A stretch of DNA of 64,000 bases from a virus. The DNA lies in IMG/VR virus record IMGVR_UViG_3300045284_000279, positions 5,761 through 69,760 of that record; one strand, written 5' to 3'. The notes under the pieces are model-generated. The model did no database searches. It was not told the DNA's origin and worked only from the letters and a program-made list of their open reading frames with translations. This document shows, in pieces, positions 25,776 through 41,405 of this stretch. Both the position numbers and the translations under genes were made by a program. Numbering within the stretch: the first letter of the stretch is position 1; every line of letters begins with the position of its first letter.

Positions 25776-26020
25776 TCGAGACCTTCGCCTCGATCCGCGA
25801 CGGCGTCTCGCTGGCCGACATCGAAGCGGCCGTGAAGACCGGCAGCGTCGAACACGTCGTGGCAGTCTTCGACGGCCTCGCCGCCTTGCAGCCTCGCGCG
25901 GCAGGCGCCAGTCAGCGGTTCCTGTCAGGCGTAGCGATCGCGAACGTCGTCTCCGATGCGATGGCTGCTGGTTCATCGGCCGTGCCGCTCTGCGTGCCGA
26001 AGAGGCACGGCGCATCGTGA
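25772..26020 (+). CDS. head protein, probable N-terminal part of gpF-like head morphogenesis protein
   Basis: helical coding-like sequence between portal and gpF domain; ATGA/GTGA overlaps. Confidence 0.5.
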   Translation: MIETFASIRDGVSLADIEAAVKTGSVEHVVAVFDGLAALQPRAAGASQRFLSGVAIANVVSDAMAAGSSAVPLCVPKRHGAS

Positions 26021-26592
26021 GCCGCTGCGGCACAGGCTTCATCGAGGTGGCCTTCGACAGGACCAATCCCGAAGCCGTCGCATATGCGGAAGCTCGAGCT
26101 GGTGAGATGGTGACGGCCGTCACGTCGAGCGTGCGCGATACGATCCGCGAGATCATCACGCGGGCCTTTACCGAGAAGATCACGCCAGCTGAAACGGCCG
26201 CGCTCATCCGCGACACCGTCGGCCTCACGGTACGCGATGCGACGGCTGTGCTGAACCTGCGGCGCGACCTGATCGACGGAGGTGCGACGAAGGCGCAGGT
26301 CAAGAAGCAGACGACGGCCTATGCCGACGGCCTTCTCAAGCGTCGCGCCGAGACCATTGCGCGCACGGAGATCATGCGCGCCTCAAACGAAGGCACCGCG
26401 CAGCTCTGGAGCCAAGCGAAGGATCGCGGCCTGTTGACCGGCGACGAGAAGAAGGTCTGGATCGCCGCTGACCCGTGTCCCGAGTGCGAAGACGTCGACG
26501 GCGAGGAAGTCGGAATCTTCGACGACTTCTCGGTCGGCACGAATCCACCACTGCATCCGAACTGCCTGTGCACGATCGGTCTGATCGCGTAG
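26017..26592 (+). CDS. head morphogenesis protein (Mu gpF/SPP1 gp7)
   Basis: RAETIARTE, K.W....CPEC...DGE, PPLHPNC.C. Confidence 0.85.
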   Translation: MSRCGTGFIEVAFDRTNPEAVAYAEARAGEMVTAVTSSVRDTIREIITRAFTEKITPAETAALIRDTVGLTVRDATAVLNLRRDLIDGGATKAQVKKQTTAYADGLLKRRAETIARTEIMRASNEGTAQLWSQAKDRGLLTGDEKKVWIAADPCPECEDVDGEEVGIFDDFSVGTNPPLHPNCLCTIGLIA

Positions 26593-26771: not shown

Positions 26772-28739
26772 ATGGCCAGCACCAGTCAGCACACCTACCG
26801 ACACAAGAGCGGGCATTCCATCGTCAAGCACGACGGAAGCTGGAGCGTGATGTCGAAGGACGGGAATCAGGTGCTGAAGCGCGTCGGTTCACTCGACGAG
26901 GCCATCGCGTGGTGCGATGCGAAGTTCGTGAAGGTCGCACGCTGCCTGCACCTGCTCGGCGCAACCGGCGACATCCGCACGGCGAAGTTCGAGGACCGCG
27001 ACCACGTCGTCGTACCTGTCGTCGCGCTGCTCGGCGACACGACGATCTGGCCGGTCAATGCGCCGGCACCTGAATACGTGCCTGCTGAGACGCTGGCCGT
27101 TGCGCCGCAGGGGTGGAACGGTCGGCCGTGCGTCGGCGATCATCCGCAGGACAACGGCACGCAGATCTCCGCCAACTCGCCGCGTATCCTCGAGCGCGAA
27201 GCCTTCGGTCGGATCTTCGACGCGCAGTTCAAGAACAACAGCCTCGCCGTCGAAGGCTGGCTCGATCGGTCTCGCGCTGATGCCCTGCCGGAACCGCAGC
27301 GCACGAATGCGCTCGACGTGCTCGATCGCGTGCTCGCAGGCGAGGTCGTCGAGGTTTCAGTCGGCTGCTACGTCGTGACGGAAGAGCACCCAGGCATCGA
27401 CGCCAACGGCATGGCATACAACGAGATCTGGACCGAGGTCGTGCCCGATCACCTCGCGTTCCTGCCTGCCGGATCGACTGGCGCCTGCTCGGTCGAGATG
27501 GGCTGCGGCGCTCCGCGTGCCGCACGCATCCACATCCCCGCAGGCGACCACTACGTCGACGGCGCGTCGGCCGTCTCCGATCCGACCTCGATTGCTGCAG
27601 GTCGTGAAGCATCCGCCGTGCTCGCGATCCTTCGCTCGGTGACGGCGCACGTACCAGAGACGACCGCGGCGCCCGTGCCCGATCCGGCACAGGTCCCGCA
27701 GGAGGACGCGATGAGCGGAACGAAGAAGGGCAGCGAGGATCTGCCGCAGCCGAAGTCCACGATGAAGACCATGCTCGCGCGCTTCGCGTCGAGCTTCGTG
27801 TCGTTCTTCCGCAGCGCACAGGAAGGCATGAGCGACGCCGACCTGCGCGGCAAGCTGTACGACGCCGTGCGGGCCGACGAGCCGGGCTTCCTCTGGATCG
27901 AGGAGGTCTATCCGACCGACAGCATCGTCATCTACTGCGTGCAGCCGGAGCAGGAGATGCAGACCATCCGCCGGACCTTCGCGTTGAGCGAATCCGGTGA
28001 CGTCACACTGAACGGCGACCGCGAAGAAGTCGAGCGCGTCACGTCGTATCAGCCGAAGGCCGCCGCGGCGAGCGCCGCAAGCGGAGTGGTCGCGGGAGAT
28101 CCCGCGCCGAAAACCGCCGCATGCGGGTGCGGCGGGCAGAAGGAGTCACAAACGCCCGCTCATACCGCAGCAGCGGAGGTCAAGATGCACAGGAACGCGG
28201 AGCGCATCAGTGCGCTCATCGCCAACCCGAAGACGTACTGGAAGGCCGCCGACCAGACGTTCCTCGAGGGTCTCGACGACGCGCGCCTCTCGGAAGTCGA
28301 GGCGGCGGCCGTGCCACCGACCGAGACCGAAGAGGAGCGTCGGCGGCGCGAGGCAGCAGCAGTCGCAGGGACCGGAACCGAGACGCCGGCCGCGACGACG
28401 ACGGAGCAGCCGAAGGCGGCTGCGGCCAAGAAGACGACGGCCGAGTGGCTGTCGGATGCGCCCGCAGAGGTGCGGTCGCTCGTGGCGAATGCCCAGCGTC
28501 AGGAGCAGGCCCGCCGTACGGCGCTGGTCGGCTCGCTGAAGGGGTGCCAGTCGGAGTACACCGAAGCGGAGCTGGGATCGATGCCGATCGATCAGCTCGA
28601 GCGCATCGCGCGCCTCGCGCGCGCCACCGTGCCGGACGCGGACTTCGCGGCGCTCGGCGGACCGGCGCGTGAAGCGGTCGACGACTTCATCGAGAACCCG
28701 CCGAACGGCTGGTTCCCGGCCGGAAAGGCGGCGAACTGA
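26772..28739 (+). CDS. prohead protease/scaffold fusion (DUF2213-type)
   Basis: WNGRP...DHP, EVSVG, PDHLA.LP....GACS...GCG followed by low-complexity scaffold. Confidence 0.8.
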   Translation: MASTSQHTYRHKSGHSIVKHDGSWSVMSKDGNQVLKRVGSLDEAIAWCDAKFVKVARCLHLLGATGDIRTAKFEDRDHVVVPVVALLGDTTIWPVNAPAPEYVPAETLAVAPQGWNGRPCVGDHPQDNGTQISANSPRILEREAFGRIFDAQFKNNSLAVEGWLDRSRADALPEPQRTNALDVLDRVLAGEVVEVSVGCYVVTEEHPGIDANGMAYNEIWTEVVPDHLAFLPAGSTGACSVEMGCGAPRAARIHIPAGDHYVDGASAVSDPTSIAAGREASAVLAILRSVTAHVPETTAAPVPDPAQVPQEDAMSGTKKGSEDLPQPKSTMKTMLARFASSFVSFFRSAQEGMSDADLRGKLYDAVRADEPGFLWIEEVYPTDSIVIYCVQPEQEMQTIRRTFALSESGDVTLNGDREEVERVTSYQPKAAAASAASGVVAGDPAPKTAACGCGGQKESQTPAHTAAAEVKMHRNAERISALIANPKTYWKAADQTFLEGLDDARLSEVEAAAVPPTETEEERRRREAAAVAGTGTETPAATTTEQPKAAAAKKTTAEWLSDAPAEVRSLVANAQRQEQARRTALVGSLKGCQSEYTEAELGSMPIDQLERIARLARATVPDADFAALGGPAREAVDDFIENPPNGWFPAGKAAN

Positions 28740-28741
28740 TC

Positions 28742-29188
28742 ATGGCGATCACCAGATACGATCCGAACACCATCTGGCTCGGTGGCAACGTGACGCAGGT
28801 CGGCGACGTCGTCGCGTCCGAAGCCATCACGCCCGGTCACCTCGTCGAGCGGTTCAACAGCTCCGGCACTGCGAAGTTCCGCAAGTGCACGCTGGTGACC
28901 GGTGCCACGCTGCCGGCATTCGCGCTCAACCAGTCGATGCTCAACAAGGGCGTCGACGACGCCTACGCGTCGGGCGACCTCGTCGAGGTCGCTATCGGCT
29001 CGAAGGGTGCCACGTTCTGGGCCATCATCGCGTCCGGACAGAACATCGTCGCCGGCGCGCGCCTCGAATCGGCAGGCAACGGGACGCTGCGGGCGCTGGC
29101 GAGCGGCGTGGCAATCGCGCAGGCCGTCCGCGGCGTCGACAACTCGGCCGGACCGGGCGACGCCCGCATCCCGGTCGAAGTGATCTGA
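28742..29188 (+). CDS. head decoration protein
   Basis: A.EAITPGHLVE...Y..GD.V...LES.GNGTLR; lies between protease and MCP. Confidence 0.7.
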   Translation: MAITRYDPNTIWLGGNVTQVGDVVASEAITPGHLVERFNSSGTAKFRKCTLVTGATLPAFALNQSMLNKGVDDAYASGDLVEVAIGSKGATFWAIIASGQNIVAGARLESAGNGTLRALASGVAIAQAVRGVDNSAGPGDARIPVEVI

Positions 29189-29204
29189 GGAGGAGTCAAA
29201 AGCC

Positions 29205-30215
29205 ATGATCAACAGATTCGGAGACCTCCGCCTCAGCGGCGCGCCAACGCACTTCCAGACGCTGGCGGCGATGCTGGCGCGGAACCTGTCCGTGGGGCAG
29301 CTGCGGTCGTTGACCCCGCTGCCTGCCGAGGCGCAGAAGGAGATCGACAAGGCCGTCGTCAGGGTGGGCCGTACGCGGCTCGTCCTCGTCGACGACCTGA
29401 TCTCGGAAGGCCTCGTCTACAACCTGACCGACCCGCTCTCGGTCATGCAGCTGGAATGGGAGTCGACCTCCGAGACCGGCGGCGCGCAGCGGACGATGAG
29501 CCCGTCTGCGCGCGGAGAGAACCAGCTGCCGAACCGCACGCCGAGCCGCGTGCCGATCTTCCTGACGACCGACGACTTCTTCCTCGGCATCAGGACGTTC
29601 CGCGCGAGCCAGCGCGTCGGTCAGCCGCTGGACACGACGCTCGTCGAGCAGGCGACGCGTCGAGTCAACGAGGCGATCGAAGACCAGGCCTTCAACGGCG
29701 CCTCGCTCGCCGTCGGCGGCTACTCGGCGCCGGGCGTGCTCGGCGCACCGAGCGTCAACAGCTACGTCTACAACGACTCCGGCCAGGCGTGGGACAACGC
29801 CGGCAAGACGGGGGAGGAGATCCTCTCCGACGTGCTGTCGATGATCGACCTCGCCGTCGGCGACAAGCGGTACGGTCCGTACAACCTGTACGTGCCGACG
29901 CTCTACGGCAACAAGCTGAACGCCGACTTCAAGGCGAACAGCGCGATGACGACGCTCCAGCGCCTGGAGCAGATCAGCGTCGGCGGCCGCAACCTGCAGG
30001 TGCGCGTCGCGGACGCGCTGCCGGCGAATAAGACCGTGCTCGTGCAGATGACGAGCGACGTCATCGACCTGATCAACGGTCAGGCTCCGGTGACGATCCC
30101 GTGGACGTCCCCGGACGGCTTCACGCTGTACTGGCTCGTGATGGCGATCCAGGTCGTGCGCGTGCGCGCCGACTACTCGTCCAACTCGGGCATCGTCGTC
30201 GGCTTCACGTCGTAA
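29205..30215 (+). CDS. major capsid protein (HK97 fold, encapsulin/linocin-like)
   Basis: strong RBS; ID.AVV...R.RL, PI...DF...R...AS...G.PLD, E...FNG, YGPY.LYVP. Confidence 0.85.
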   Translation: MINRFGDLRLSGAPTHFQTLAAMLARNLSVGQLRSLTPLPAEAQKEIDKAVVRVGRTRLVLVDDLISEGLVYNLTDPLSVMQLEWESTSETGGAQRTMSPSARGENQLPNRTPSRVPIFLTTDDFFLGIRTFRASQRVGQPLDTTLVEQATRRVNEAIEDQAFNGASLAVGGYSAPGVLGAPSVNSYVYNDSGQAWDNAGKTGEEILSDVLSMIDLAVGDKRYGPYNLYVPTLYGNKLNADFKANSAMTTLQRLEQISVGGRNLQVRVADALPANKTVLVQMTSDVIDLINGQAPVTIPWTSPDGFTLYWLVMAIQVVRVRADYSSNSGIVVGFTS

Positions 30216-30256
30216 GCCGCGTCGAAGTCTACCGAAGGGAGCGAGGAGAAACCGCC

Positions 30257-30661
30257 ATGCCGAAGTATCGCATCGTGGCCGGCAAGATCAGCCGGCCTGT
30301 TCGCCGCGAGAACACGCAGCCCGATCCGAAGACGGGCAAGCATCCCGAAGATCGCGTGGTCTTCAGGGCCGGTCAGGTCGTCGACTTGTCGCACGAGGAA
30401 GCGGCGCGCCTCGGCGCGAACGTCGTGCCCGTCGCCGACGAGATGGCCGATCAGATCCCGTCGGGGTCTGTCGGCGTGCCGCTCGGATTCGGCGCCGGTC
30501 CGGATCGTGCCGTGCCGGTGAAGGGTTCGACGGCCACCCAGCCGCCGCAGCCTGCCAGCCGGCCGACCGGTGGCACGACCGACCTGTCGACGCCGGTCGA
30601 CGAGGCCGGAGACAAGACCCAGGCCGACGGCAAGTCGGAAGGCCGCAAGGGCCGCGGGTAG
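30257..30661 (+). CDS. virion-associated hypothetical protein
   Basis: GAGGAG RBS; follows MCP; G.VV.LS.EEA..L. Confidence 0.55.
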   Translation: MPKYRIVAGKISRPVRRENTQPDPKTGKHPEDRVVFRAGQVVDLSHEEAARLGANVVPVADEMADQIPSGSVGVPLGFGAGPDRAVPVKGSTATQPPQPASRPTGGTTDLSTPVDEAGDKTQADGKSEGRKGRG

Positions 30662-30689
30662 TCAACGCGGATCAGGAGGAGGAGTATCG

Positions 30690-30920
30690 GTGCTGACGAT
30701 CCGCGTCGAGCACAGCGCGTCCGTCCACGAGGTCTTCGAGGCCTCGCGCTACACCTACGACAGCGAGGCTTGTCACTTGACCATCGATCAGGTCGAGGGC
30801 GGGCCTCGCGTCGTCCAGCTCGGACAGGGCGCGAAGTACTACGTGATGAACAGCGTCGGGCAGACGGTGGCGACGGAGACCGTCGGCCGGCCTCGCTCGG
30901 CGCAGTTCAGGACTGGATAG
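30690..30920 (+). CDS. hypothetical protein
   Basis: AGGAGGAGGAG RBS; YVMN..G.TV motif. Confidence 0.55.
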   Translation: MLTIRVEHSASVHEVFEASRYTYDSEACHLTIDQVEGGPRVVQLGQGAKYYVMNSVGQTVATETVGRPRSAQFRTG

Positions 30921-30923
30921 GCG

Positions 30924-31277
30924 ATGGCGTGGGGATTCACCGGCGCGGCGGAGCCTGACGTCAACGTGCGTGCCGCCGTCGTGCCCGTCGCCGACGACGT
31001 GACGGAAGCCATCGCGCAGGGCGGACAGATCGTCAGCGGCAACGTACGCATTCAGTGGATCAACGTCATCAACGACGCGCAGCAGGAAGAAGGCGTGCGC
31101 GTCACCGACACGGCCGGGAATCCGATCTTGCCGATGGTGAAGGTGCCGGAGCGCGACAACCGCGAGAAGGAGTGGCCGTTCCCGAAGTACAACGGCGTCG
31201 TCGTGTGGCGTCCCTTGTCGGGTGCCGTCGCCAACGGTGCCGTGACCGTCGACTTGACCGGCTACGCGGTGACCTAA
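30924..31277 (+). CDS. beta-rich virion-associated protein
   Basis: position in structural operon; beta-strand pattern. Confidence 0.5.
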   Translation: MAWGFTGAAEPDVNVRAAVVPVADDVTEAIAQGGQIVSGNVRIQWINVINDAQQEEGVRVTDTAGNPILPMVKVPERDNREKEWPFPKYNGVVVWRPLSGAVANGAVTVDLTGYAVT

Positions 31278-31281
31278 CACA

Positions 31282-31887
31282 GTGAGACGCTGGCTGCACC
31301 TCGCGCTCGTCGGTGCCTTCGGGATGTTGGCTGGGAACCTGCTGACGGGCCGACCCGTCGAAGCGCAGAACATCAAGGCGACGGATCCGCGCAACGGCCA
31401 CACCGTCGACCTCGGCGACTGGGGCGGGAAGCTCGACACGATCGCCGGCGACACGACGGTGATGCAGACGCAGCTGGCGAGCATCCTCAAGCGGCTCAAT
31501 CGTCCGCTCGTCGTGATTCCGCAGCCGCTCGGTGCCTGCGCAGCGACGAACACCACGCTCTTCGATCAGGCCATCTCGCAGACGGCGACGACGAGGATCA
31601 TCACCGGCGTCCCGGGCATGCGGTGGGTGGTCTGCGCGATTCGCATCGTGGCGAATGCGGCCGAGGTCACGTCGGAGTTGGAAGGCACGGGCACCAACTG
31701 CGGCACCGGCACGGTCGCGCACAGCGGCTCGACGACGGCAGCGAGCGGTGAGAGCTTTTCAGCAGGCGGCGGCTACCAGAGCACGCAGCCGTTCTACGCG
31801 AACAAGCCCGGCACGGACTTCTGCATCGGCGACAGCGGATCGAGCAGGGTGACCGGCAAGGTGACGGCGGCGTTCGTGCCGTCTTAG
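31282..31887 (+). CDS. signal-peptide beta-sandwich protein
   Basis: MRRWLHLALVGAFGMLAG...VEA/Q; Thr/Gly rich, 4 Cys. Confidence 0.6.
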   Translation: MRRWLHLALVGAFGMLAGNLLTGRPVEAQNIKATDPRNGHTVDLGDWGGKLDTIAGDTTVMQTQLASILKRLNRPLVVIPQPLGACAATNTTLFDQAISQTATTRIITGVPGMRWVVCAIRIVANAAEVTSELEGTGTNCGTGTVAHSGSTTAASGESFSAGGGYQSTQPFYANKPGTDFCIGDSGSSRVTGKVTAAFVPS

Positions 31888-31902
31888 GGTGGAGCAGACA
31901 CG

Positions 31903-32400
31903 ATGAAGACGTGGAAGGCCTTCGACATCATCTTCGCGACGCTCAGCGCGGTCGTCGTGGCACTCGTCGTGCCGCTGCACGCGCAGTTGAATCAGCCGGA
32001 CCCTGCGAAGGTCCAGGCCGAACTGGGCGTCCCTGCGATCTACCTGGTTCCGATCTCGGCGACAGCAGGTAACTCGACGCAGACGACGCTGACGATTCCT
32101 GCACCTCCGCCCGGTGCCTACAACTACGTGTGCAAGCTCGACTTCAACGACTCGCAGGGCACGACCGGCAACGCACAGACCAACTCCACGATCACGACGA
32201 CGAACTTCAACTCGTGGGCGTGGAAGTACAGCCTCGCCGCGGCGACCAACACGCAGTACGAGCATTCGTTCGACTGGGGTCAGCCGGCGACCGGCTGCGC
32301 GAAGAGCACCTCGCCCGCGACGGCGACGACCTTCGTGAGCCCGAGCGGCGGCAACGCGACGCAGTTCACGTTCTCGGCGATGTACTACCAAGCGAAGTGA
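31903..32400 (+). CDS. signal-peptide protein, paralogue 1 of 3
   Basis: LHA/Q cleavage site; DPAK, TLTIP, YVCKL, TNFNSWAWKYS, YEHSFDWG.PATGCAKS. Confidence 0.7.
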   Translation: MKTWKAFDIIFATLSAVVVALVVPLHAQLNQPDPAKVQAELGVPAIYLVPISATAGNSTQTTLTIPAPPPGAYNYVCKLDFNDSQGTTGNAQTNSTITTTNFNSWAWKYSLAAATNTQYEHSFDWGQPATGCAKSTSPATATTFVSPSGGNATQFTFSAMYYQAK

Positions 32401-32408
32401 GGATTCCG

Positions 32409-32945
32409 ATGAAGCGTGCCGTCGTCTTCCTGATCGCCTTCTTCGGTCTGCTCGTCCTCGGGCCGCGTGCCACGCAGGTAATCTGGCGCGCCGCCGAGAT
32501 GCCGTTCTCGTTGGCGGAAAGGCTCGACGCGCAGAACCTCTCCGATCCTGCGAAGACGCAGGTTGAGATCGGCATCCCGGCCGTCTACACGATTGCGATC
32601 TCGGCGACGGCCGCCGTCAACAACCAGACGACGCTGACGATTCCGCAGCCGCCGTCCGGTCAGTACAACTACGTGTGCAAGCTCGAATTCAGCGCGAGCC
32701 AGAACGGCACGTCGACGGCTAACCCGAACAGCACGACGAGCTCGACGAACTTCAACAGCTGGGCGTGGAAGTATTCGCTGGCGGCGACGGCGAACCTGTC
32801 GTACGAACATTCGTTCGACATGGGCAACCCTGCGACCGGCTGCGCGAAGAGCACGTCACCCGGCACCGTCACGACGTTCGTCTCGCCGGCAGCGCTGACC
32901 AACACGGCCTTCACGTGGTCGGCCACCTACTATCAGGCGAAGTAA
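32409..32945 (+). CDS. signal-peptide protein, paralogue 2 of 3
   Basis: hydrophobic N-terminus; same motifs as 31903. Confidence 0.7.
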   Translation: MKRAVVFLIAFFGLLVLGPRATQVIWRAAEMPFSLAERLDAQNLSDPAKTQVEIGIPAVYTIAISATAAVNNQTTLTIPQPPSGQYNYVCKLEFSASQNGTSTANPNSTTSSTNFNSWAWKYSLAATANLSYEHSFDMGNPATGCAKSTSPGTVTTFVSPAALTNTAFTWSATYYQAK

Positions 32946-33460
32946 TGGGGACGTCAGCCTTCGCTCGAACGATCGTCCGCGACGCGCTGCGCATCGTCGG
33001 CCTGCTCGCCTGCGCCATCATCGCGCTCGGCCTCAGGCAGCAGCAGAATACGCCGGACCCTGCGAAGCTCCAGATTGAGCTCGGCGTGCCGGGCGTCTAC
33101 CTGACGCAGTCGTCGGCGACTGGCGCGAGCAGCGCACAGGTGACGCTCACGATTCCTGCGCCGCAGCCGAACAACTTCGTCTACGTCTGCAAGCTCGAGA
33201 TCTCGGCGTCGAACGACGGCGTCGGAGCAGGTGCACTGACGAACGCCACGTGGACCTCGACGAACTTCAACTCGTGGGCCTGGAAGTATTCCTCGCCGAT
33301 GGCTGCGCGCACGAACTACGAACACGCGTTCGACTGGGGTCAACCTGCGTCCGGCTGCGCGAAGGCGATCCTGCCCGGCACGGCAGTGACGTTCGTGTCG
33401 ACGGCGGCGACCGGCAACGACCAGTTCACGATGAGCGCCGTGTGGTTCTACGGGAAGTAA
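32945..33460 (+). CDS. signal-peptide protein, paralogue 3 of 3
   Basis: hydrophobic N-terminus; same motifs as 31903. Confidence 0.7.
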   Translation: MGTSAFARTIVRDALRIVGLLACAIIALGLRQQQNTPDPAKLQIELGVPGVYLTQSSATGASSAQVTLTIPAPQPNNFVYVCKLEISASNDGVGAGALTNATWTSTNFNSWAWKYSSPMAARTNYEHAFDWGQPASGCAKAILPGTAVTFVSTAATGNDQFTMSAVWFYGK

Positions 33461-33473
33461 AGGAGTGTCCTGC

Positions 33474-33848
33474 ATGACTCGCCCTGTTCGGCTGGTGCTC
33501 GCGCTGATCGTCGCCGCGAGCCTCGCCTCGCCCGCGTCGGCCGCCATCACGTATACGCAGGCTGCGGCGCTCGCTGTCGACACGGTCTTTATCGGTCAGG
33601 TGCTGGTGTCAGTCGAAAAGGCGGCCGTCTCCATCAACGCGGAAGCGACGACCGTCGCAGGTCATCGCGAGCGTGCGGCGCTGGCGACGCGCGTGATGGC
33701 CGACCCAGACGTCTGGAAGCTCAAGTTCGCCAACGCCTGCGCCGGCAACCTCACGTCGACGCTGTCGGGCGTGTCGGCCACCGACGCACAGGTCGACACG
33801 GCCGTGTCGTCCGTCTGGAATACGATGGCCGGCTACTTCGCGCAGTAG
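33474..33848 (+). CDS. signal-peptide helical protein
   Basis: AGGAG RBS; MTRPVRLVLALIVAASLASPASA/A; H..RAALA..V...D......V...WN..AG. Confidence 0.6.
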   Translation: MTRPVRLVLALIVAASLASPASAAITYTQAAALAVDTVFIGQVLVSVEKAAVSINAEATTVAGHRERAALATRVMADPDVWKLKFANACAGNLTSTLSGVSATDAQVDTAVSSVWNTMAGYFAQ

Positions 33849-33855
33849 ACTTCCG

Positions 33856-34587
33856 ATGCGTAGACTACTCATCGCCTTCGCGCTGTTCCTCATCTGCGCC
33901 TCTCGCGTCGATGCAGCGCTGGCCGTCGTGCAGGAGAAGGGCGTCTTCAACCCGAACCCTGCGAGCACGACCGCCGCGATTACGATCACCAGTTCAGTCT
34001 CGGGGAACCTCCTCATCGCGCTGGTGATGAACGACGCTTCCCAGCCGACCGTGTCTGGTGTCAGCGGCGGCGGCGCGAACACCTTCACGCAGGTGCCGTC
34101 GGCCCGCGCGCTGGACGGCGGCACGCACATGTCGGACATCTGGTATCTGCCGAACAACGCCGGCGGGATCACGACTGTCACGGCGACGCTCAGCGCGTCG
34201 AGTAGTTCGCACGGCATCTGGGTGATGGAAGTGTCGGGTGCCGCGACGGCGAGTCCCGTCGACATCCAGTCGGTGAAGAACAACGCAACGGCCTCGACGA
34301 CGGTCACCGGCACGTCGATGAACACGACGAACGCCGCCGACATCATCGTGGCGAACTGGACGACCGGCGCGACGACGACGACGGCCAACGCGCCGTGGAC
34401 GCTGTTCACGAATATCCTGAACGGAAACGGTGCCGGCTACCAGATCGTCGCCGTCACCAACTCGTACGCCGTGTCGGCCAACCAGAATTCAAGTCAGACG
34501 TACTGCGTGTCGCAGGTCGCCTTCAAGGGTACTGCGGCGGCGGCACCGTGCACCCGATCGTTGCTCGGCGTCGGGTGCCTGCCGTGA
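33856..34587 (+). CDS. signal-peptide Ser/Thr-rich beta protein
   Basis: VDA/A cleavage site; GNLLIA, E.SG...SP.D, C-terminal RSLLGVG. Confidence 0.6.
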   Translation: MRRLLIAFALFLICASRVDAALAVVQEKGVFNPNPASTTAAITITSSVSGNLLIALVMNDASQPTVSGVSGGGANTFTQVPSARALDGGTHMSDIWYLPNNAGGITTVTATLSASSSSHGIWVMEVSGAATASPVDIQSVKNNATASTTVTGTSMNTTNAADIIVANWTTGATTTTANAPWTLFTNILNGNGAGYQIVAVTNSYAVSANQNSSQTYCVSQVAFKGTAAAAPCTRSLLGVGCLP

Positions 34588-34623
34588 TCTTTCGTTCACT
34601 GTAGCCTTGGAAAGGTGCCGTCG

Positions 34624-35142
34624 ATGATGCCGATGATTACGAGACAGCGCAAGCGCCAGCGAGCTATCGGCCTGCTCGCGCTCTTCGGGCTGCAGCCGAT
34701 CTACGACCTGCGCCGGTCGAAGGGGAACACCTTCGAAGACGACGTGTTGAAGCTGTACTTCAACGCGACGGCGATCGCGAACATCGCCGACAACGCGGCG
34801 AGCTCGCCCATCACGAACATCGAAGTCGCGCTGCACACCGCCGACCCAGGTGAGGCCGGGAACCAGACGACGAGCGAAGCGGCCTACACCAGCTACGCGC
34901 GCGTCGCCGTGGCGCGGACCTCGGGCGGCTGGTCGGTCTCGTCCGGCAGCGTGTCGCCCGTCGCGAACATCGACTTCCCTGCGGCGACCGGCGGATCGGA
35001 AACCGAGACGCACGGATCGGTCGGCACAGCGCACACCGGCACCGGCAAGATCATGTACAGCGGCACCGTGACGCCGAACATCGCCGTCGCGAACGGCGTG
35101 ACGCCTCGCCTGACGACGGCGAGTGCGATCACGGAGGACTGA
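34624..35142 (+). CDS. small virion fibre-associated protein
   Basis: SKGNTFE...FNATAIANIADNAA, ALHTADPGEAG, YARVAVAR, FPAATGG, a widespread phage fibre-associated family. Confidence 0.7.
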   Translation: MMPMITRQRKRQRAIGLLALFGLQPIYDLRRSKGNTFEDDVLKLYFNATAIANIADNAASSPITNIEVALHTADPGEAGNQTTSEAAYTSYARVAVARTSGGWSVSSGSVSPVANIDFPAATGGSETETHGSVGTAHTGTGKIMYSGTVTPNIAVANGVTPRLTTASAITED

Positions 35143-35146
35143 CGCC

Positions 35147-35578
35147 ATGACCGAGCAGCAGAAGATCTCATCCGAGGACGTGATGGAAGTCGACGCCGCG
35201 GACCTTGTCAAGGCGACGCCGTACGAAGAAGTCGGCGACCGCTGGGACATCGACCGCTCGACTGGCACCGTGCAGGCCGTGTGCCCGCGCTGCCAGAAGC
35301 CTCGCGGCGCCGAGTGCTGCGACGACTGCCGCGTCCAGAGCACGCTGCATACGAAGACGGCTGGGAACAAGCCGCGCATCGTGAGTGCCGTCGGCGCGAT
35401 GGCCTCGCACGGCGCGATGGGGTCCGAAGCCGGTCTCGGGAAAGAGATCCAGGAAGCGATGGTTGCCGCGGTGCAACGCCTGCTCGACGAAGGCGTTCCG
35501 ATCGACGCAGAAGCCGCGAAGTATCGCGAGGCGCAGATGGCCGCGCGCAAGGCCGTGCTCGACAAGCATCGAGGATAG
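35147..35578 (+). CDS. hypothetical Zn-finger protein
   Basis: GGAGG RBS; CPRC...CCDDC. Confidence 0.5.
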   Translation: MTEQQKISSEDVMEVDAADLVKATPYEEVGDRWDIDRSTGTVQAVCPRCQKPRGAECCDDCRVQSTLHTKTAGNKPRIVSAVGAMASHGAMGSEAGLGKEIQEAMVAAVQRLLDEGVPIDAEAAKYREAQMAARKAVLDKHRG

Positions 35579-35584
35579 CGACGC

Positions 35585-37381
35585 ATGAAGCTCGGGCTCC
35601 GCATTCCGTACTACTACGCCGCAGGACCGGTCATCGTCGCAGCCGCCTTGACGTGTGCGAGTGCCTCGTCGGCGTCCTTCGTCGGCCGCTCGACGCGCGC
35701 GGGCGCGTTGTCGAGTGCCGGCACGGCTGCCGCAACCTTCGTCGGGCGGAGCACGCGCGCGGCGAGCCTGTCTAGCGCAGGAGTCGGTACGGCGACGTAC
35801 GTCGGGGCGCCTCGCGCAGCCGGCGCGCTCGCGTCGGCAGGAGTCGGAGCCGTGACCTTCGTGGGTCGGTCCACCGCTGCTGGCAGTCTCGCGTCGGCAG
35901 GCGTCGGCGCGGCGACCTTCGTGGGCCGCTCTACGGCTGCAGGAGCGCTGTCATCTGCGGGGGGTGCCTCAGTAGCCTGGACGGGCCGCTCGACAGCCTC
36001 CGGGGCACTGGTCAGCGCTGGCATCGGGTCTGCGACCTTAGTAGGACGAGCCGTCAAGTCGGCCGCCCTGTCGGCCGCAGGAGCAGGAACGGCGTCGTAC
36101 GTCGGACGATCTACGGCTGCAGGCGCCTTGGCAGCTGCAGGAGTTGGCACGGCAACCTTCACCGGCAGGTCTACGGCCTCGGCCGCCCTGTCCTCGGCAG
36201 GCCTGTCTACGGCTGCTCTGGTAGGCCGGTCCACCGCGGCCGGGGCGTTAGCCGCCTCAGGGGCGGCGACAGCGTCCTGGGCCGGGAGGTCCAGCGCAGT
36301 AGCCATCCTGGCCGCAGCCGGCACCGGCACCGCGTCGTGGACCGGCGCGAGTCGGTCTGCCGCGGCGTTGTCGTGCACTGGCGCAGCAACCGTCCTCTTC
36401 GTCTCGAAGCCGGAAGGCCGCTTGCTGGCGGCAGGAGTCAGCGCGGCGAGCTTCGTCGGTAGTTCGACGGCGGCCGCAGTGCTGTCGTGCGCCGGTGCAT
36501 CCTCGGTCGCCTTCGACGGCAGGGCGAGCAAAGCAGCCGCCCTGTCGAGCGCAGGTCTGTCCTCGGCGAGCTTCGTCGGGCGATCCACCTTCTCGGCCTC
36601 GATGTCGGCGAGTGCTGCCAGCACTGCGACATTCGTCGGCGCGCCTCGGACGGCTGCCGCGCTCTCGGCCGCGGGGATCTCGAGCGCGACCTTCGTCGGC
36701 AGGTCGACGACGGCCGGAGTGCTGTCGAGTGCAGGCGCATCTTCAGCACCCTTCGTCGGACGGGCGACGGCCGCAGGTGCCTTGACGGCCGCAGGCGCAG
36801 GATCGGCGACCTTCGTCGGTCGCTCGACGTCGGCCGGCGTGTTGTCGGCCGCAGGCACGAGCGCGCTGTCGTTCTCGACGAACGCCACTCGCTCTGCGGT
36901 CTTCTCGTCCGCAGGAGTCGGCTCGGCATCGTGGACCGGTGCGAGCATCAAGGCCGGCGCGCTCTCGTCGGTAGGTCTCAGCGCGGCGAGCTTCGTCGGT
37001 CGTTCGACTCGCGCTGGTGCCTTGTCGACATCTGGCGCAGCAACGGCGACATTCGTCGGGCGCACGACGCGAGCGGGAAGTCTGACGGCAGCCGGCGTTG
37101 GATCGGCGACCTTCGTAGGCCGCTCGACTCGCTCTGCGGTTTTCTCGGCGACGGGCTTCGGTTCTGTCTCGTGGAACGGCGTCATCTCAGGCACGGCGTC
37201 AGAGACGCACCTCATCGCCGTCTTCTCGCCCGCGTTGGCCTGCGTCGCGCAGGTCCAAGGCGACTCCGTGCTCGCCGCGACGTGGCGACAGGCCGTGCAG
37301 GTCGCCGTCGTCTATGCGCCCTCGGCAGGCCTGCTCGGCTCTGCTCGCGTCGACGACACGGAAGGCGAAGGCGACTTCTGA
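35585..37381 (+). CDS. Ala/Ser/Gly/Thr-rich tandem-repeat fibre-like protein
   Basis: about 26 copies of a 20-aa unit, consensus FVGRSTAAGALSSAGxxxAT. Confidence 0.75.
   Translation: MKLGLRIPYYYAAGPVIVAAALTCASASSASFVGRSTRAGALSSAGTAAATFVGRSTRAASLSSAGVGTATYVGAPRAAGALASAGVGAVTFVGRSTAAGSLASAGVGAATFVGRSTAAGALSSAGGASVAWTGRSTASGALVSAGIGSATLVGRAVKSAALSAAGAGTASYVGRSTAAGALAAAGVGTATFTGRSTASAALSSAGLSTAALVGRSTAAGALAASGAATASWAGRSSAVAILAAAGTGTASWTGASRSAAALSCTGAATVLFVSKPEGRLLAAGVSAASFVGSSTAAAVLSCAGASSVAFDGRASKAAALSSAGLSSASFVGRSTFSASMSASAASTATFVGAPRTAAALSAAGISSATFVGRSTTAGVLSSAGASSAPFVGRATAAGALTAAGAGSATFVGRSTSAGVLSAAGTSALSFSTNATRSAVFSSAGVGSASWTGASIKAGALSSVGLSAASFVGRSTRAGALSTSGAATATFVGRTTRAGSLTAAGVGSATFVGRSTRSAVFSATGFGSVSWNGVISGTASETHLIAVFSPALACVAQVQGDSVLAATWRQAVQVAVVYAPSAGLLGSARVDDTEGEGDF
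35670..37180 (+). repeat. degenerate 60-bp coding tandem repeat
   Basis: recurrent (C)TTCGT(C/G)GG at 60-bp spacing. Confidence 0.75.
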
Positions 37382-37821
37382 TGGCCATCACCTTCGACAT
37401 CACCGAAGATCACGGATGGTTCGTCGGCGACGACAAGGACTTCGTCTTCGAGATCCTCGCCGACGACGGTATCGATCCGTGGCTCGACGAAGAACAGACG
37501 ATCCCGAATCCTGCGAAGGGCGTCGTCAACGTCAGCACCTGGACGCTCGCGTGGACGGTGCGGAAGAAGGACGACTCGCCGGATCCGCCGCTCGTGCAGA
37601 AGACGACGACGAGCGGCATCACGATCGAAGGCACCTACAACTCGTCGCGTGCCTCGAACACGCAGCGCGTGCGCGTCTCAGTTGCCGACACGGACACCGA
37701 CGCCGTCACCGCAGGGAACTGGCGCCACGCGCTGAAGCGCATGACCGACGGCGCTGAGCAGGTTATCTCACGCGGCGACGCGCTCCTGCAGCGCGCAACG
37801 ACGCCGGCCTCACTGTCATGA
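37381..37821 (+). CDS. BppU-N-like Ig-fold virion protein
   Basis: GDD..F.F.I, V.V...T....VRK, V.V.VA..DT.....G...H.L. Confidence 0.55.
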   Translation: MAITFDITEDHGWFVGDDKDFVFEILADDGIDPWLDEEQTIPNPAKGVVNVSTWTLAWTVRKKDDSPDPPLVQKTTTSGITIEGTYNSSRASNTQRVRVSVADTDTDAVTAGNWRHALKRMTDGAEQVISRGDALLQRATTPASLS

Positions 37822-38384
37822 GCATCACCATCGTCGCCACGCCCGGCGCCGCCGACGCGAACTCGTACGCGACTCTCGACGAAGCCGCGTCGTACTTCGA
37901 GGTCCGCCTGCACGACGAAGCGTGGGAATCGGCGGCAACCGAAGACCAGAAGGCAGCGCTCGTGTGGGCGACGCGTTTGATCGACGGCTTTGATCCGTGT
38001 CCGGACCTGCCGTCGACGCTCGGGCCGTGGACCGGCACGGTGTCGTCCGCCACGCAGGCCTTGGCATGGCCGCGCACCGGCATGACGGATTCGAACGGGC
38101 GCGCTATCGCGAGCACCGTCATTCCGAACCAGTTGAAGTGGGCTGAATTCGAGCAGGCGCTGGCGCTCCTGAAGGCCGACCGCACGCTCGAGAGTGCCGC
38201 GGGAGCGCAGGGCATCACGCGCCTGAAGGCCGGCTCAGTCGAGCTCGGCTTCAAGGACGAGATCACGATCCAATCCATCGCGCCGGGCGTGCGTGCGCTC
38301 CTGCCTCGCTCGTGGGTGCGGCAGTGCTCCGGCATCACCTCGTATCTCTTCGACGTGGTCGGTCCGTCGAAGCCGTGCGGATAG
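37818..38384 (+). CDS. head-tail adaptor (DnaT-like annotated family)
   Basis: ANSYATLDEA..YF, AL..AT..ID, QALAWPRTG, IP..LK.A..E.AL. Confidence 0.8.
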   Translation: MSITIVATPGAADANSYATLDEAASYFEVRLHDEAWESAATEDQKAALVWATRLIDGFDPCPDLPSTLGPWTGTVSSATQALAWPRTGMTDSNGRAIASTVIPNQLKWAEFEQALALLKADRTLESAAGAQGITRLKAGSVELGFKDEITIQSIAPGVRALLPRSWVRQCSGITSYLFDVVGPSKPCG

Positions 38385-38385
38385 C

Positions 38386-38742
38386 ATGGCGCTCGATGAC
38401 CTCATTCGTGGCGGCATCGCGCTGGCGAAGGATCTGACGGCCGACCTGCAAGCGACCGTCAAGCATCGCCGCTACAAGGGCCAGCTGCACACCGGCGAGC
38501 GGGACTTCTATCCGGTCGTCCTGCGGCAGGCCATCGTCGACGCGAAGCAGGAGAAGGTTCGCGCAGCCGACGGGCGCGAGGTCGTCAGCAGGATGTACGT
38601 GCTGTTCCTCGAACCCGTCGACGTCACGTTGAAGGACGAGATCACCTTGCCGGACGGCACGAAGCCTGAGCTCATCGCGCTGGCAGGGTTCGTCGACAAA
38701 GGATCTGGGAATCCCTATTACCGAGAGATCTGGACGGCATGA
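38386..38742 (+). CDS. head closure/stopper protein
   Basis: G.EVVS...V.F, D.ITLPDG; position after adaptor. Confidence 0.7.
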   Translation: MALDDLIRGGIALAKDLTADLQATVKHRRYKGQLHTGERDFYPVVLRQAIVDAKQEKVRAADGREVVSRMYVLFLEPVDVTLKDEITLPDGTKPELIALAGFVDKGSGNPYYREIWTA

Positions 38743-39815
38743 TCCGCGTGGCACTCGCTGAGCCCTACCTGATCGGCAATGAACGCCGATACGTCCTCGA
38801 TGCGATGGACAAGGGCGAGCTGACGTGGCGCGGAGCCTATGTCGAACGCTTCGAGCACGCCTTTGCGAAGTACGTCGGCGCGCGCTACGCCATCGCCTGC
38901 TGTAACGGCACGGCCGCCCTGCACCTCGCCCTGCGTGCTGCAGGAGTCGAGCGCGGCATGCGCGTCGCCATGCCGACGCTGACCTACGTGGCGACGGCGA
39001 ACGCCGTCCGCTACTGTGAGGCTGTGCCAGTCTTCTGCGACGTCGATCCCGAGACGTGGCAGATGAGGCTGGACTACCGCCGACACGACCACGTCGACGC
39101 CATCCTGCCGGTGCACCTCTACGGCATTCCTGCGACGTCTGTCTCGCGATCGCCTGGCCTCGTCGTAGAAGATGCGGCCGAAGCCTTCGGCGCGCTGTTC
39201 GACGGCGTGACGCACGTCGGCATGATGGGGGCAGCCGGGTCGTTCTCGTTCTACGCGAACAAGATTCTGACCTGCGGCGAAGGCGGCATCGTCGTGACGA
39301 ACGACGAGCAGGTCGCCGCGAAGGCTCGCCTGCTGCGCGGGCAGGCGCAAAGTCCCGATCGGCTGTACTGGCACGTCGACGTCGGCTTCAACTACCGCAT
39401 GACGAACCTGCAAGCGGCCGTTGCGCTCGGACAGATCGAAAAGGCCGGCATCCACCTTTCCGCGCGCCTCGGGATCTTCGACCACTACCGCTTTCGCCTG
39501 CGTGACGAATCCGTGTCGTGGCCGCGCACGGAGCACGTCACCGACATTCAGGCGCCGTGGATGTTCGTCGTGCAGCTGCCGCCGTACGTCAATCGTGACA
39601 GCACGATCGAGAAGCTCGCAGGTCGAGGCGTAGAGACGCGGCCGGCCTTCGCCTGCCTGCACACGATGCCGCCCTACGCAACTGGCGAACAGCTGCCTCA
39701 CGCGCAGGCGATCTCCGCGAGTGCGCTGTGCCTGCCGACGCACGGAGGTCTGACGTATGCCGAGGTCGACTACGTCTGCGACAGCCTGCTCGAGATCATC
39801 AGGAGGGCAGCGTGA
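38739..39815 (+). CDS. DegT/DnrJ/EryC1/StrS sugar aminotransferase (perosamine synthase-like)
   Basis: NGTAALHLAL, PVHLYG, EDAAEA.GA, SFYANKILTCGEGG (PLP Lys), GFNYRMTNLQAA. Confidence 0.93.
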   Translation: MIRVALAEPYLIGNERRYVLDAMDKGELTWRGAYVERFEHAFAKYVGARYAIACCNGTAALHLALRAAGVERGMRVAMPTLTYVATANAVRYCEAVPVFCDVDPETWQMRLDYRRHDHVDAILPVHLYGIPATSVSRSPGLVVEDAAEAFGALFDGVTHVGMMGAAGSFSFYANKILTCGEGGIVVTNDEQVAAKARLLRGQAQSPDRLYWHVDVGFNYRMTNLQAAVALGQIEKAGIHLSARLGIFDHYRFRLRDESVSWPRTEHVTDIQAPWMFVVQLPPYVNRDSTIEKLAGRGVETRPAFACLHTMPPYATGEQLPHAQAISASALCLPTHGGLTYAEVDYVCDSLLEIIRRAA

Positions 39816-40537
39816 GCTACGTCGGCGCTGAAGCGACCGTCAGAGGCTTCAACGCGAAGTGCTTCTTCGGCGCAGGCGAGAAGACGCCCGGCTGGTATCT
39901 GTACGGCGGCTTCCGCGGCCAGATCCACGAGGTGCCGCTCGCAGGTCCATTCAATGACGAAGCGACCTGCCTGCGCGCGGCCGTCTGGATGGAAGCGCAG
40001 GCGCACCCGACGTGGTCTGAGGTCTATCAGACGGTGAAGCTGATACCTGCCGCCGACGGGGCGTTCCAGATCGAGCAGGTGCCGGAGATCTACGACCCAG
40101 TCATCGTCCTGCGCGCTCAGGCGATTCGCATCGCCCGCACTGCCCGCGTCGACAGCTTCGTGAAGCTCGAAGGCGGCGAAGGCCTGTTCATCGGCGAGCA
40201 CGTGCACGTCGCGTCGTTCTGCCACCTTGGCATCGGCGGTGGCCTGACGCTGCTCGAAGACGGATCGTCGTTCGGCTCTGGATCGAAGGTGCTGAGCGGC
40301 AGCAATACGCACGGCCTCGGGCATGGCTGCTCGGCTATCGTGCCGGACGCACAGTTCTCGCGGTCCTTCGTCCACGTCAAGAAGAACGCCACGTTGTTCG
40401 TCAATGCTGTTGTCCTGCCGGGCGTAACCGTCGGCGAGAATGCGGTCGTCGCCGCAGGTGCCGTCGTAACGAAGGACGTGCCGGACGGCGAGATCTGGGG
40501 CGGGATTCCTGCGCGCAAGATCGGAGTCGTCCTGTGA
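39812..40537 (+). CDS. hexapeptide-repeat (LbH) sugar acetyltransferase with extra N-terminal domain
   Basis: NAVVLPGVTVGENAVVAAGAVVTKDVP...WGGIPAR. Confidence 0.88.
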   Translation: MSYVGAEATVRGFNAKCFFGAGEKTPGWYLYGGFRGQIHEVPLAGPFNDEATCLRAAVWMEAQAHPTWSEVYQTVKLIPAADGAFQIEQVPEIYDPVIVLRAQAIRIARTARVDSFVKLEGGEGLFIGEHVHVASFCHLGIGGGLTLLEDGSSFGSGSKVLSGSNTHGLGHGCSAIVPDAQFSRSFVHVKKNATLFVNAVVLPGVTVGENAVVAAGAVVTKDVPDGEIWGGIPARKIGVVL

Positions 40538-41169: not shown

Positions 41170-41405
41170 CCGGCCTGCGCCTTGCCGACGGCCAGCCTGC
41201 TGAGATTCCTGCGGCGGGATCGTACTGGCTACACGGGACGACGTGGTATGCGATCACGCCGAACGGCATGCTGGCCTCGCTGGCAAACCACACCGTCGAA
41301 GTCCACGACGACGGCACCATCTCGGTTAGCCCGTCGATCAGGTGCCGCAGTCCACTGCGTGAGTGGCATGGCTTTCTCGAACGTGGCACGTGGAGGGACG
41401 CGTGA
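41166..41405 (+). CDS. DUF6527-like small protein
   Basis: H.V..H.DGTISVSPSI...WHGFL..G.W. Confidence 0.6.
   Translation: MTGLRLADGQPAEIPAAGSYWLHGTTWYAITPNGMLASLANHTVEVHDDGTISVSPSIRCRSPLREWHGFLERGTWRDA

Follow-up and report, generated by a model that had tools for sequence, protein, structure and literature searches.

Six consecutive genes in the late region of an uncultured tailed virus, here called SP1 to SP6, encode small proteins that begin with leaders of the Sec type and are very probably exported from the cytoplasm. The genes lie in a stretch of 64,000 nucleotides (hereafter, the window) that comprises bases 5761–69760 of the 69,760-base record IMGVR_UViG_3300045284_000279, estimated to be 93% complete. 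Judging from sequence comparison, the six are leader-bearing versions of modules that other phages make in the cytoplasm without a leader, and the presence of a leader tracks the presence of disulfide-type cysteines. The interpretation that we favour, with a probability of about 0.4, is that SP1 to SP6 are exported accessory binding modules that would gain disulfides in the periplasm and join the virus particle at lysis.

Leaders and cysteines of the six proteins

An earlier note on this DNA had described six consecutive open reading frames (ORFs) with basic and hydrophobic leaders, placed between capsid and neck genes. All six are present on the plus strand, in a slot bounded upstream by the major capsid gene and downstream by the gene of the head-tail adaptor Ad1 (Table 1), and the gaps between them measure −1 to 15 nucleotides (nt). 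Each of the six N-termini carries 1–3 Arg/Lys residues, with a net charge of +1 to +2, followed by an uncharged hydrophobic core of 12–19 residues whose mean Kyte-Doolittle value is 1.7–3.1. In agreement with the A/Q and AxA sites that the note had seen in several leaders, clear −3/−1 sites are found in four of the six: VEA↓Q in SP1, LHA↓Q in SP2, ASA↓A in SP5 and VDA↓A in SP6 (arrows mark the predicted cut). The residue at position +1 is Gln in SP1, SP2 and the family site of SP3, and Ala in SP5 and SP6. In SP3, the family A↓Q site is located ~23 residues past the hydrophobic core. SP4 has its core at residues 17–30 and no A-x-A site, only ALG↓L. Because neither protein has a convincing cleavage site close after the core, SP3 and SP4 may be uncleaved signal anchors.

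No lipobox (L-[AS]-[GA]-C) was found in any ORF at 30000–38000, as the LLAC of SP4 falls in the middle of its core. Likewise, a complete twin-arginine motif (S/T-R-R-x-F-L-K) is found in none of the six: SP1 and SP6 start with MRR, the core comes directly after, and the remainder of the motif is absent.

When our leader rule was applied to a curated list of 84 genes of the window, 10 were flagged. Seven of these are consecutive, from 31282 to 34615, and consist of the six genes plus the adjoining gene for a putative fibre "bead" described below. A run of seven flagged genes was obtained in 0 of 200,000 shuffles of the 84 genes. The remaining three flagged genes are that of the repeat protein at 35585, which was discounted (see below), and two in the lysis region.

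The Thr/Ser/Gly richness pointed out earlier was confirmed, with Ser, Thr, Gly and Ala making up 42–47% of each protein. The mature parts of SP1 to SP6 contain 4, 2, 2, 2, 1 and 3 Cys residues, respectively, which amounts to 1.48 Cys per 100 amino acids (aa) versus 0.49 in 12 core structural proteins. The earlier description of paired cysteines thus holds for four of the six proteins, and a C-x8-C loop is found in SP6, whose C-terminal part is made of a flexible Ala-rich linker and a C-TRSLLGVG-C tail; it does not hold for SP5, which has one Cys. No enzymatic signature was found in the six proteins. Pfam and PHROGs provide no family for them, except for a weak match of SP5 to phrog_33419 (E 0.001), and none of the six matches the PF23140 (Gp80 fibre-bead) profile.

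Conservation of leader shape and cysteines in the SP2 family

SP2, SP3 and SP4 are paralogs: in the alignment, SP3 is 61% and SP4 51% identical to SP2 (66% and 56%, respectively, over the matched part). The family includes 161 metagenomic relatives at E ≤ 1e-3, all of ~155–178 aa, which have no Pfam domain and whose only name is "hypothetical protein". Among 120 listed members of the 161, our rule detects a leader in 118, and the other two have a leader-like N-terminus that lacks a basic residue. A small-x-small↓Gln site at the end of the core is present in 106 of the 120, and exactly two Cys residues beyond residue 35 are present in all of them. Alignment of 29 members revealed that the first ~25 residues share no sequence and yet keep the n-h-c shape (N-terminal, hydrophobic and C-terminal regions). 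In the same 29 sequences, Q28, C77 and C132 are invariant, and the leaders end just before the Gln.

With a profile of the mature part of SP2, the domain was also recognised in two other viral loci, where it makes up the C-terminal half of larger proteins without a leader, one of 260 aa in L012 (64.8 bits) and one of 246 aa in L013 (49 bits). Both are encoded in structural regions, have an N-terminal extension of ~125 aa and share the same YY.AP terminus, and in both of them the two Cys positions are substituted or deleted. A partial match in a third locus, L014 (30 bits), reaches the first Cys position only.

A tblastn search of SP2 against 50,697 phage records gave no match. A limited, pattern-based scan of representative genomes from 185,579 species of bacteria and archaea did not find the SP2 family either, as 0 of 41 candidate stretches matched. 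The family therefore does not appear to be a lysogenic-conversion gene of common prophages.

Leaderless counterparts of SP5 and SP6

Word-index searches yielded 7 related proteins for SP6 and 2 for SP1. In the SP1 family, for which four members were assembled, all four have leaders of unrelated sequence, followed directly by Q in three, and C86, C118, C140 and C181 are invariant in the four.

The SP6 family comprises 1520 cluster representatives at E ≤ 1e-3. In an alignment of 32 sequences, many stand-alone members show classical leaders ending in A-x-A↓A, and the leaders are not conserved in sequence while the mature part is. Leaderless members start with M followed by AIxLVQ, a position that corresponds to the predicted VDA↓A cleavage site of SP6. 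Of 97 stand-alone members sorted by anchor motifs, 34 carry a leader, 25 do not and 38 were left unclassified. The loop C-x(5-11)-C is found at the C-terminus in 10/34 leader-bearing and 0/25 leaderless members, and a looser rule gave 14/60 versus 0/38.

The SP6 family shows two alternative tails after a flexible Gly/Ala/Pro linker, T/R-x-L-L-G-V-G, which the Cys loop often closes, and ...S-x-F-L-V-F. Tails of the ..LxGVG type are found in 14 of 34 leader-bearing members and in 1 of 25 leaderless ones, and tails of the ..FLVF type in 0/34 and 8/25, respectively. Short, hydrophobic and preceded by a flexible linker, these C-termini look like docking peptides. We presume a loose resemblance of the motif to encapsulin cargo-loading peptides and to the start of PEP-CTERM anchors.

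A scan of viral contigs with the SP6 protein itself retrieved one locus. A counterpart of SP6 with 87–90% identity is encoded in a 7.6-kb viral contig, L016. The protein starts MALTIVQEKG..., at the predicted mature N-terminus of SP6, has no room upstream for a leader and lacks the C-terminal Cys-loop tail. It is adjoined by a 107-aa leaderless homolog of SP5 that lacks exactly SP5 residues 2–20. Neighbours of these two genes are a collagen-like fibre gene, a gene of phrog_3758 ("virion structural protein") and a gene for a 418-aa repeat protein. Profile comparison indicated that the SP2 family is unrelated to SP1 and to two L016 neighbours (probability ~1% or less).

The SP6 domain is also found, in up to four copies, in large bacterial proteins with Big_7, TIG, fn3 and PKD domains, which carry in addition phosphoesterase, GH88 or apiosidase-like domains. 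As judged from sequence, this domain make-up is that of extracellular proteins. A complex prediction with mature SP6 and mature SP5 gave a score of 0.01, which is no answer and counts neither for nor against binding.

Altogether, the earlier proposal of export is strongly supported by leaders of variable sequence that retain the n-h-c shape and the −3/−1 sites, by Cys pairs found only in leader-bearing forms, and by leaderless relatives that begin at the predicted cleavage site.

Predicted folds

In the AF2 model of SP2 (predicted local distance difference test, pLDDT, 85.6), the leader forms an N-terminal helix, which a linker connects to a beta sandwich of eight strands. Fold matches over residues 41–165 are generic jelly rolls with Z 5.5–7.5 (VIA); they include phage cement and turret proteins (Z 5.8–6.9), TNF/C1q-like heads and carbohydrate-binding modules, none of them prominent. 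In a Foldseek search of PDB, the best E was 9.5e-4, with template modelling (TM) scores ≤0.40. The top BFVD match, a 126-aa protein of Curvibacter phage P26059B, was dropped, as either of two 126-aa genes in the early region of this phage, both without a leader, could be the match.

The SP6 model has a pLDDT of 92.5 and a low-confidence tail from about residue 231. Foldseek found no match in PDB at E ≤ 1e-3, and the best Z in VIA was 5.8, each half resembling a single jelly roll. Structural neighbours of SP6 in the Atlas are large extracellular-type bacterial proteins, mostly from Acidobacteriota, plus viral clusters. We read the six proteins as small binding or decoration modules.

Leader genes in related viral loci

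Leader-bearing genes of the SP2 family were detected in the structural region of 7 distinct related viral loci (L006 and L007, 99.9% identical, were counted once). In L004, L005, L006, L009 and L011, they occupy the stretch from the capsid gene to adaptor or tail genes; in L008 and L010, they are surrounded by other genes for structure and lysis. They are joined by additional leader-bearing genes, namely a row of five in L006, three each in L005 and L008, and several in L009, L010 and L011. The backbones of these loci belong to three different structural-module types, and the G+C content of the contigs is 59–67%, except for two loci near 40%.

Two further traits were observed in these loci. 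Gln at +1 is also found in most other leader proteins of L004–L011, and the structural block of the podophage-type relatives contains endolysin and holin-like genes scattered among the leader genes (Table 1).

A candidate bead-on-rope fibre next to the six genes

SP6 is followed by genes for a gp80-like fibre bead, a Cys-rich protein and a repeat protein that we consider a candidate "rope" (Table 1). The bead has a basic-hydrophobic N-terminal extension of ~27–33 aa, R/K-rich and then AIGLLALFGL, which is a weaker leader-like feature than those of the six. For most homologs, retrieved from 12 phage records, the alignment begins only at residue 29–35, and the annotated start of the Lacusarx protein corresponds to about residue 34. 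R-x-R repeats are present in this N-terminus, and the twin-arginine motif is not. No true match to the bead sequence was found in PDB, and profile comparison with the phrog_3758 protein of L016 revealed no similarity. The Cys-rich protein, which harbors a CPRC...CC..C cluster, is the sole product between 31282 and 37381 that our leader rule does not flag.

The repeat unit of the candidate rope is (F/W/Y)VGRSTxAGALSSAGxGxAT. Its N-terminus was flagged by the rule and rejected as a leader since its IPYYY..AG motif is common to the repeat protein of L006. Analogous repeat proteins are encoded after the leader genes in L006, where the protein ends in a concanavalin/LamG-like motif, and after the leaderless counterparts in L016. 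Because rope candidates recur in these two loci, the six genes appear to lie within a chain-like fibre or head-accessory block.

In podophage A1002, according to the part of the report available to us, Gp80-like fibre dimers use beta-sheet augmentation to dock serially along a stretch resembling a rope; the map lacks some 30 residues at the N-terminus of gp41, for which proteolysis is suggested (PMC13730344). By analogy, the repeats found here are candidate docking sites for fibre beads, and bead and rope may form a chain-like bead-on-rope fibre in a siphophage-type genome. Known chain-like fibres comprise GP4 gp80, VP1 gp11 and A1002 gp40/gp41 on the nozzle-rope protein (PMC13730344). In the window, the gene adjoining the six belongs to PF23140, and a repeat-protein gene lies two genes on. 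The present case differs from the nozzle-rope of podophage A1002 in that the rope would be a separate protein, encoded in a siphophage-type genome. The six leader proteins themselves do not belong to the Gp80 family.

Comparison with known systems

Textbook assembly of tailed phages is wholly cytoplasmic. Terminase, portal, an HK97-type capsid, tape measure and an endolysin-like gene are all present in the window; hence, particles would be built in the cytoplasm and released by host lysis. Virion proteins with Sec leaders are known in Ff phage: pIII and pVIII mature in the envelope, pIII contains disulfides, and the particles are assembled at the membrane by extrusion. The virus described here is unlike Ff in assembling in the cytoplasm and lysing the cell.

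Consecutive late leader genes ending in small↓Gln are also found in tailed phages of Cellulophaga baltica. In phage phi18:3 (GenBank KC821620), gp085–087 are annotated as structural proteins "based on experimental MS/MS" (tandem mass spectrometry) proteomics analysis, and all three start with Sec leaders ending in S↓Q or A↓Q. Phage phi46:3 (KC821622; L023 30343–38945) has five consecutive genes, gp079–083, with Sec leaders of the same endings, four of them annotated as structural by similarity. The Cellulophaga proteins differ from the six in their length (312–843 aa) and in being spike- or depolymerase-like, relatives of one of them in Nekkels phages being annotated as pectate lyase. Furthermore, they show no sequence similarity to SP1–SP6, the tblastn search of SP2 against phage records having given no match, and their host belongs to Bacteroidota.

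Phages of Porphyromonas gingivalis (proposed Nixviridae) carry genes without a known function that have signal peptides exposing an N-terminal Gln; in the part of the source available to us, the products are interpreted as modifiers of the host outer membrane (PMC10367356). Exposure of Gln by the predicted cleavage is a trait shared with SP1, SP2 and 106 of the 120 SP2-family members. The P. gingivalis phages are prophages, and in that part of the source a link to virion modules, Cys pairs or leaderless counterparts is not described (PMC10367356). SP5 and SP6 are unlike these proteins, as Ala and not Gln would be exposed.

Exported or lipid-anchored products of genes located among or near structural genes are known in tailed phages, such as lambda Lom and Bor, T5 Llp, and Cor of phi80/N15. 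Each of these proteins comes from a single gene that usually has expression signals of its own and is active in the prophage or early, and leaderless counterparts of them are not known. Unlike them, the six genes are translationally packed and show neither a promoter- or terminator-like site nor a lipobox.

The jelly-roll cement and turret proteins (KHP40 cement, 7dou; Pam1, 7eel; HFTV1 turret, 8qpg) and TNF/C1q-like fibre knobs match SP2 with Z 5.8–6.9 over ~100 residues, and share with SP2 a similar size and a gene slot after the capsid gene. The scores are, however, typical for any jelly roll, and no sequence relation was found. We know of no protein of these kinds that carries a signal peptide.

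In the literature on exported virion proteins of tailed phages, we found no paper on runs of leader modules in a structural operon and no description of leaderless counterparts or of leader-cysteine coupling. The Cellulophaga leaders were not found discussed in print, and matches to a phiCbK paper concerned lysis genes only.

Proposed route and alternative explanations

The route that we propose can be described in a few steps. The six genes would be transcribed and translated along with the head and neck genes, and their products would be exported across the inner membrane. Signal peptidase I would cut at least four of them, and two might be anchored. The exported modules would then fold and form disulfides in the periplasm. 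The gain from export would be oxidative folding, which would provide disulfide-stabilised, extracellular-grade modules; because this is the presumed benefit, leader and Cys pairs would come and go together. Access to the DNA-filled particle would be possible only once holin lesions and lysis merge the compartments, and the modules might at that stage become accessory parts of its exterior, perhaps by attaching to the bead-and-rope fibre or via the C-terminal docking tails. The odds of this joining step, taken by itself, are in our view slightly short of even.

Since cytoplasmic versions exist, the job of these families cannot require the periplasm. A target that can be reached from either side is therefore favoured over a role confined to the periplasmic envelope: the particle, or something met after lysis. 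Addition to particles at lysis, as raised in the earlier note, would also agree with the virion-type neighbours of the leaderless SP5 and SP6 counterparts, with the placement of SP2-family leader genes in the structural region of related loci, with the adjoining bead-and-rope module, with the docking-like tails of many SP6-family members and with the Cellulophaga annotation.

A bolder speculation, which we regard as rather doubtful, is the existence of a second, periplasmic arm of particle assembly, in which outer modules routed through Sec and oxidised would be clipped onto finished particles at lysis. Such modules would serve either as head decorations or, in the form of knobs or lectin-like beads, in a bead-on-rope fibre; gain and loss of the leader would be an evolutionary switch between cytoplasmic and periplasmic versions; and the Pgl-like sugar genes of the operon might feed glycans to the exported parts.

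Joining of the particle, if true, would be a new assembly route for tailed phages. The question can now be tested as a choice between outer parts matured in the periplasm and added at lysis, and soluble or envelope factors. Whichever holds, there are consequences for the way in which soil phages stabilise and diversify their host-binding parts, for the interpretation of virion proteomes and the annotation of "structural" genes, and for phage display and engineering with disulfide-bonded add-on parts. Experiments could begin at once with the cultured Cellulophaga phages.

Several points weigh against the view that the six are exported modules that join the particle:

(i). No result presented here places any of the six in a particle. 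The earlier note had taken the position in the structural operon as a sign of a virion role; this premise is weak because an aminotransferase, an acetyltransferase and glycosyltransferases share the operon.

(ii). Leader calls relied on a simple rule of our own and on family alignments, and not on a dedicated predictor. SP3 and SP4, with their predicted anchors, may stay in the inner membrane.

(iii). Disulfides would not be uniform, given the single Cys of SP5 and the three of mature SP6. A C-terminal tail of any kind is missing from the L016 counterpart of SP6, so the tail is dispensable in the family.

(iv). The fold matches are generic, with a best Z of 7.5 for SP2 and 5.8 for SP6, and a mature SP2-type protein is roughly a jelly roll alone, without the ~125-aa N-terminal extension of its leaderless relatives, which look virion-borne.

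(v). The envelope is where the exported proteins known from tailed phages (Lom, Bor, Llp and Cor) act. The Cellulophaga precedent for exported structural proteins is a database annotation only, and the MS/MS data behind it could reflect co-purified envelope material.

The alternative that survives best, albeit as an unlikely one, is that the proteins are exported and never become part of the particle. They would remain in the periplasm or the membrane and act on the envelope; for instance, they could mask a receptor or surface glycans, thus blocking superinfection and keeping progeny from sticking to debris. The evidence for export applies equally to this explanation, and T5 Llp, Cor, and lambda Lom and Bor provide precedents. 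SP3 and SP4 resemble membrane-anchored versions of a soluble paralog, and the way in which the SP2 domain forms the C-terminal module of the larger leaderless proteins of L012 and L013 would be expected for a binding module. A role in envelope modification is also how the P. gingivalis phage proteins that follow the Q-rule (Gln at +1 after cleavage) are interpreted in the available part of their description (PMC10367356). An envelope role is, however, weakened by the leaderless counterparts (of SP6 at 87–90% identity, of SP5, and 25 of the 97 SP6-family members), which cannot reach the periplasm before lysis. Neither do the six genes look like classic morons, since they have no promoter or terminator of their own and their G+C content at third codon positions (GC3) is similar to that of their neighbours. 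The slot between head and neck genes is conserved in most related loci, and the limited scan of bacterial and archaeal genomes mentioned above did not find the SP2 family.

Less probable still is that the six are free, soluble, lectin-like factors that act outside the cell, neither on the particle nor on the envelope, and bind polysaccharide, debris or neighbouring cells, whether released by early export or by lysis. Such a function would accommodate the fact that leader-bearing and leaderless versions are interchangeable within families, as well as the L016 counterpart of SP6, which has neither leader nor tail. It is also consistent with the recurrence of the SP6 domain in large bacterial extracellular proteins, where its structural neighbours in the Atlas (mostly from Acidobacteriota) are likewise found. 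On the other hand, free factors would not be expected to be tightly embedded in the head/neck gene block across phages nor to have docking-like C-terminal tails, as many SP6-family members do, and the benefit that a phage would obtain from coating future hosts is unclear.

Lack of export, with N-termini that are assembly elements, prohead-protease propeptides or products of wrong start codons, is highly improbable even though predicted signal peptides on some phage capsid proteins have been suggested to be protease-cleaved propeptides (PMC10367356, in the part available), the Shine-Dalgarno sequence is weak before some of the six genes and no formal predictor was used: an assembly element would be conserved in sequence, whereas these leaders keep only their physico-chemical shape and −3/−1 sites, Cys pairs track the leader, leaderless relatives start exactly at the predicted signal-peptidase site, and the frames are open from the leaders on in genes packed end to end. 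An artefact, or a cytoplasmic structural helix mistaken for a leader, is by the same sequence evidence very unlikely.

The late operon and its sugar-synthesis cassette

The window has a G+C content of ~64%, nearly all its genes are on the plus strand, and no tRNA genes were found in it. Pfam and PHROGs assignments identify the late operon as of the siphophage type (Table 1). The closest capsid proteins from cultured phages, those of Brevundimonas phages, are only 31–32% identical.

Table 1. Coordinates of genes mentioned in the text (positions in the window, except for the last two rows)
Feature	Position	Strand	Assignment and characteristics
Large terminase	20539–22164		Pfam/PHROGs
Portal	24330–25775		Pfam/PHROGs
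Mu-F-like minor head protein	26017–26592		Pfam/PHROGs
Protease/scaffold-like protein	26772–28739		Pfam/PHROGs
Head decoration-like protein	28742–29188		Pfam/PHROGs
Major capsid protein	29205–30215	+	Upstream boundary of the six-gene slot
SP1	31282–31887	+	201 aa; leader ~1–28 (VEA↓Q); conserved C-terminal domain with 4 invariant Cys
SP2	31903–32400	+	165 aa; leader 1–27 (LHA↓Q), then 137-aa jelly-roll domain with 2 invariant Cys
SP3	32409–32945	+	178 aa; SP2 paralog
SP4	32945–33460	+	171 aa; SP2 paralog; start overlaps SP3 stop by 1 nt
SP5	33474–33848	+	124 aa; leader 1–23 (ASA↓A), then domain
SP6	33856–34587	+	243 aa; leader 1–20 (VDA↓A), ~205-aa beta-sandwich domain, tail
gp80-like fibre bead	34615–35142	+	PF23140, E 1.9e-15, 57.8 bits (cut-off 27)
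Cys-rich protein	35123–35578	+	151 aa, between bead and rope; no Pfam/PHROG family
Candidate rope	35585–37381	+	598 aa, ~25 tandem 20-aa repeats
Head-tail adaptor Ad1	37818–38384	+	phrog_477, E 4.8e-33; downstream boundary of the six-gene slot
Head-tail connector	38293–38742		Pfam/PHROGs
Neck protein	44528–44923		Pfam/PHROGs
Tail tube	45416–45820		Followed by chaperones
Tape measure	46568–50254		Pfam/PHROGs
1485-aa tail protein	50251–54708		Pfam/PHROGs
Endolysin-like gene	56636–57208		Pfam/PHROGs
Lysis-type genes among leader genes, L010	8735–9417, 13659–13880		
Lysis-type gene among leader genes, L009	7713–8425		

A scan for sigma-70-type signals detected 0 promoter-like sites at 27000–45129, and no terminator-like sites were found on the plus strand of the same region. 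The GC3 of the five leader genes recovered by the gene-caller ranges from 0.79 to 0.89.

The structural operon also harbors, at 38739–44531, a sugar-synthesis cassette, which is preceded by the head-tail connector gene and followed by those of the neck and tail tube. Besides genes without assignment, it encodes an aminotransferase of the DegT family (E 8.9e-87), a hexapeptide acetyltransferase and two glycosyltransferases that are GT1/GT4-like. Pairing of an aminotransferase with an acetyltransferase is reminiscent of Pgl-type amino-sugar pathways. The target of the cassette could be virion proteins, exported proteins or host glycans. Compared with shuffles, the six proteins show no enrichment of the glycosylation motifs N-x-S/T, D-[ST]-[AILVMT] and [DE]-x-N-x-[ST]; action of the sugar genes on them has therefore no motif support.

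Host clues and additional observations

The DegT gene has 6 matches at 31–38% identity, 5 of which are in metagenome-assembled genomes of Bacteroidota (Chitinophagaceae, Chitinophaga, Saprospiraceae), a weak hint about the host. This hint conflicts with the Atlas neighbours of SP6, mostly from Acidobacteriota. In the part of the source available to us, the Q-rule is described for Bacteroidetes only (PMC5837995). The combination of Gln at +1 with a G+C content of mostly 59–67% suggests either unusual Bacteroidota hosts or validity of the rule in another phylum. The N-termini of 53 long SP6-domain proteins are uninformative in this regard, as a loose small-x-small↓Q is found in 13 of them, in several cases outside leaders.

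Three other loci deserve mention. In the early region, at 3773–5646, a gene for a TET-associated glycosyltransferase (PF20691, E 1.7e-38) adjoins one for an RGP-like glycosyltransferase (PF03214, E 1.3e-7), a pair suggestive of DNA bases that are hypermodified and glycosylated. The gene at 22376–23110, between those of terminase and portal, encodes an R2K-clade ATP-grasp protein (PF14243, E 5.9e-6). Lastly, the 1485-aa tail protein contains repeated units of ~70 aa that are also found in adaptor-region proteins of L011, and a C-terminal Peptidase_S74 intramolecular chaperone domain (E 5.8e-4).

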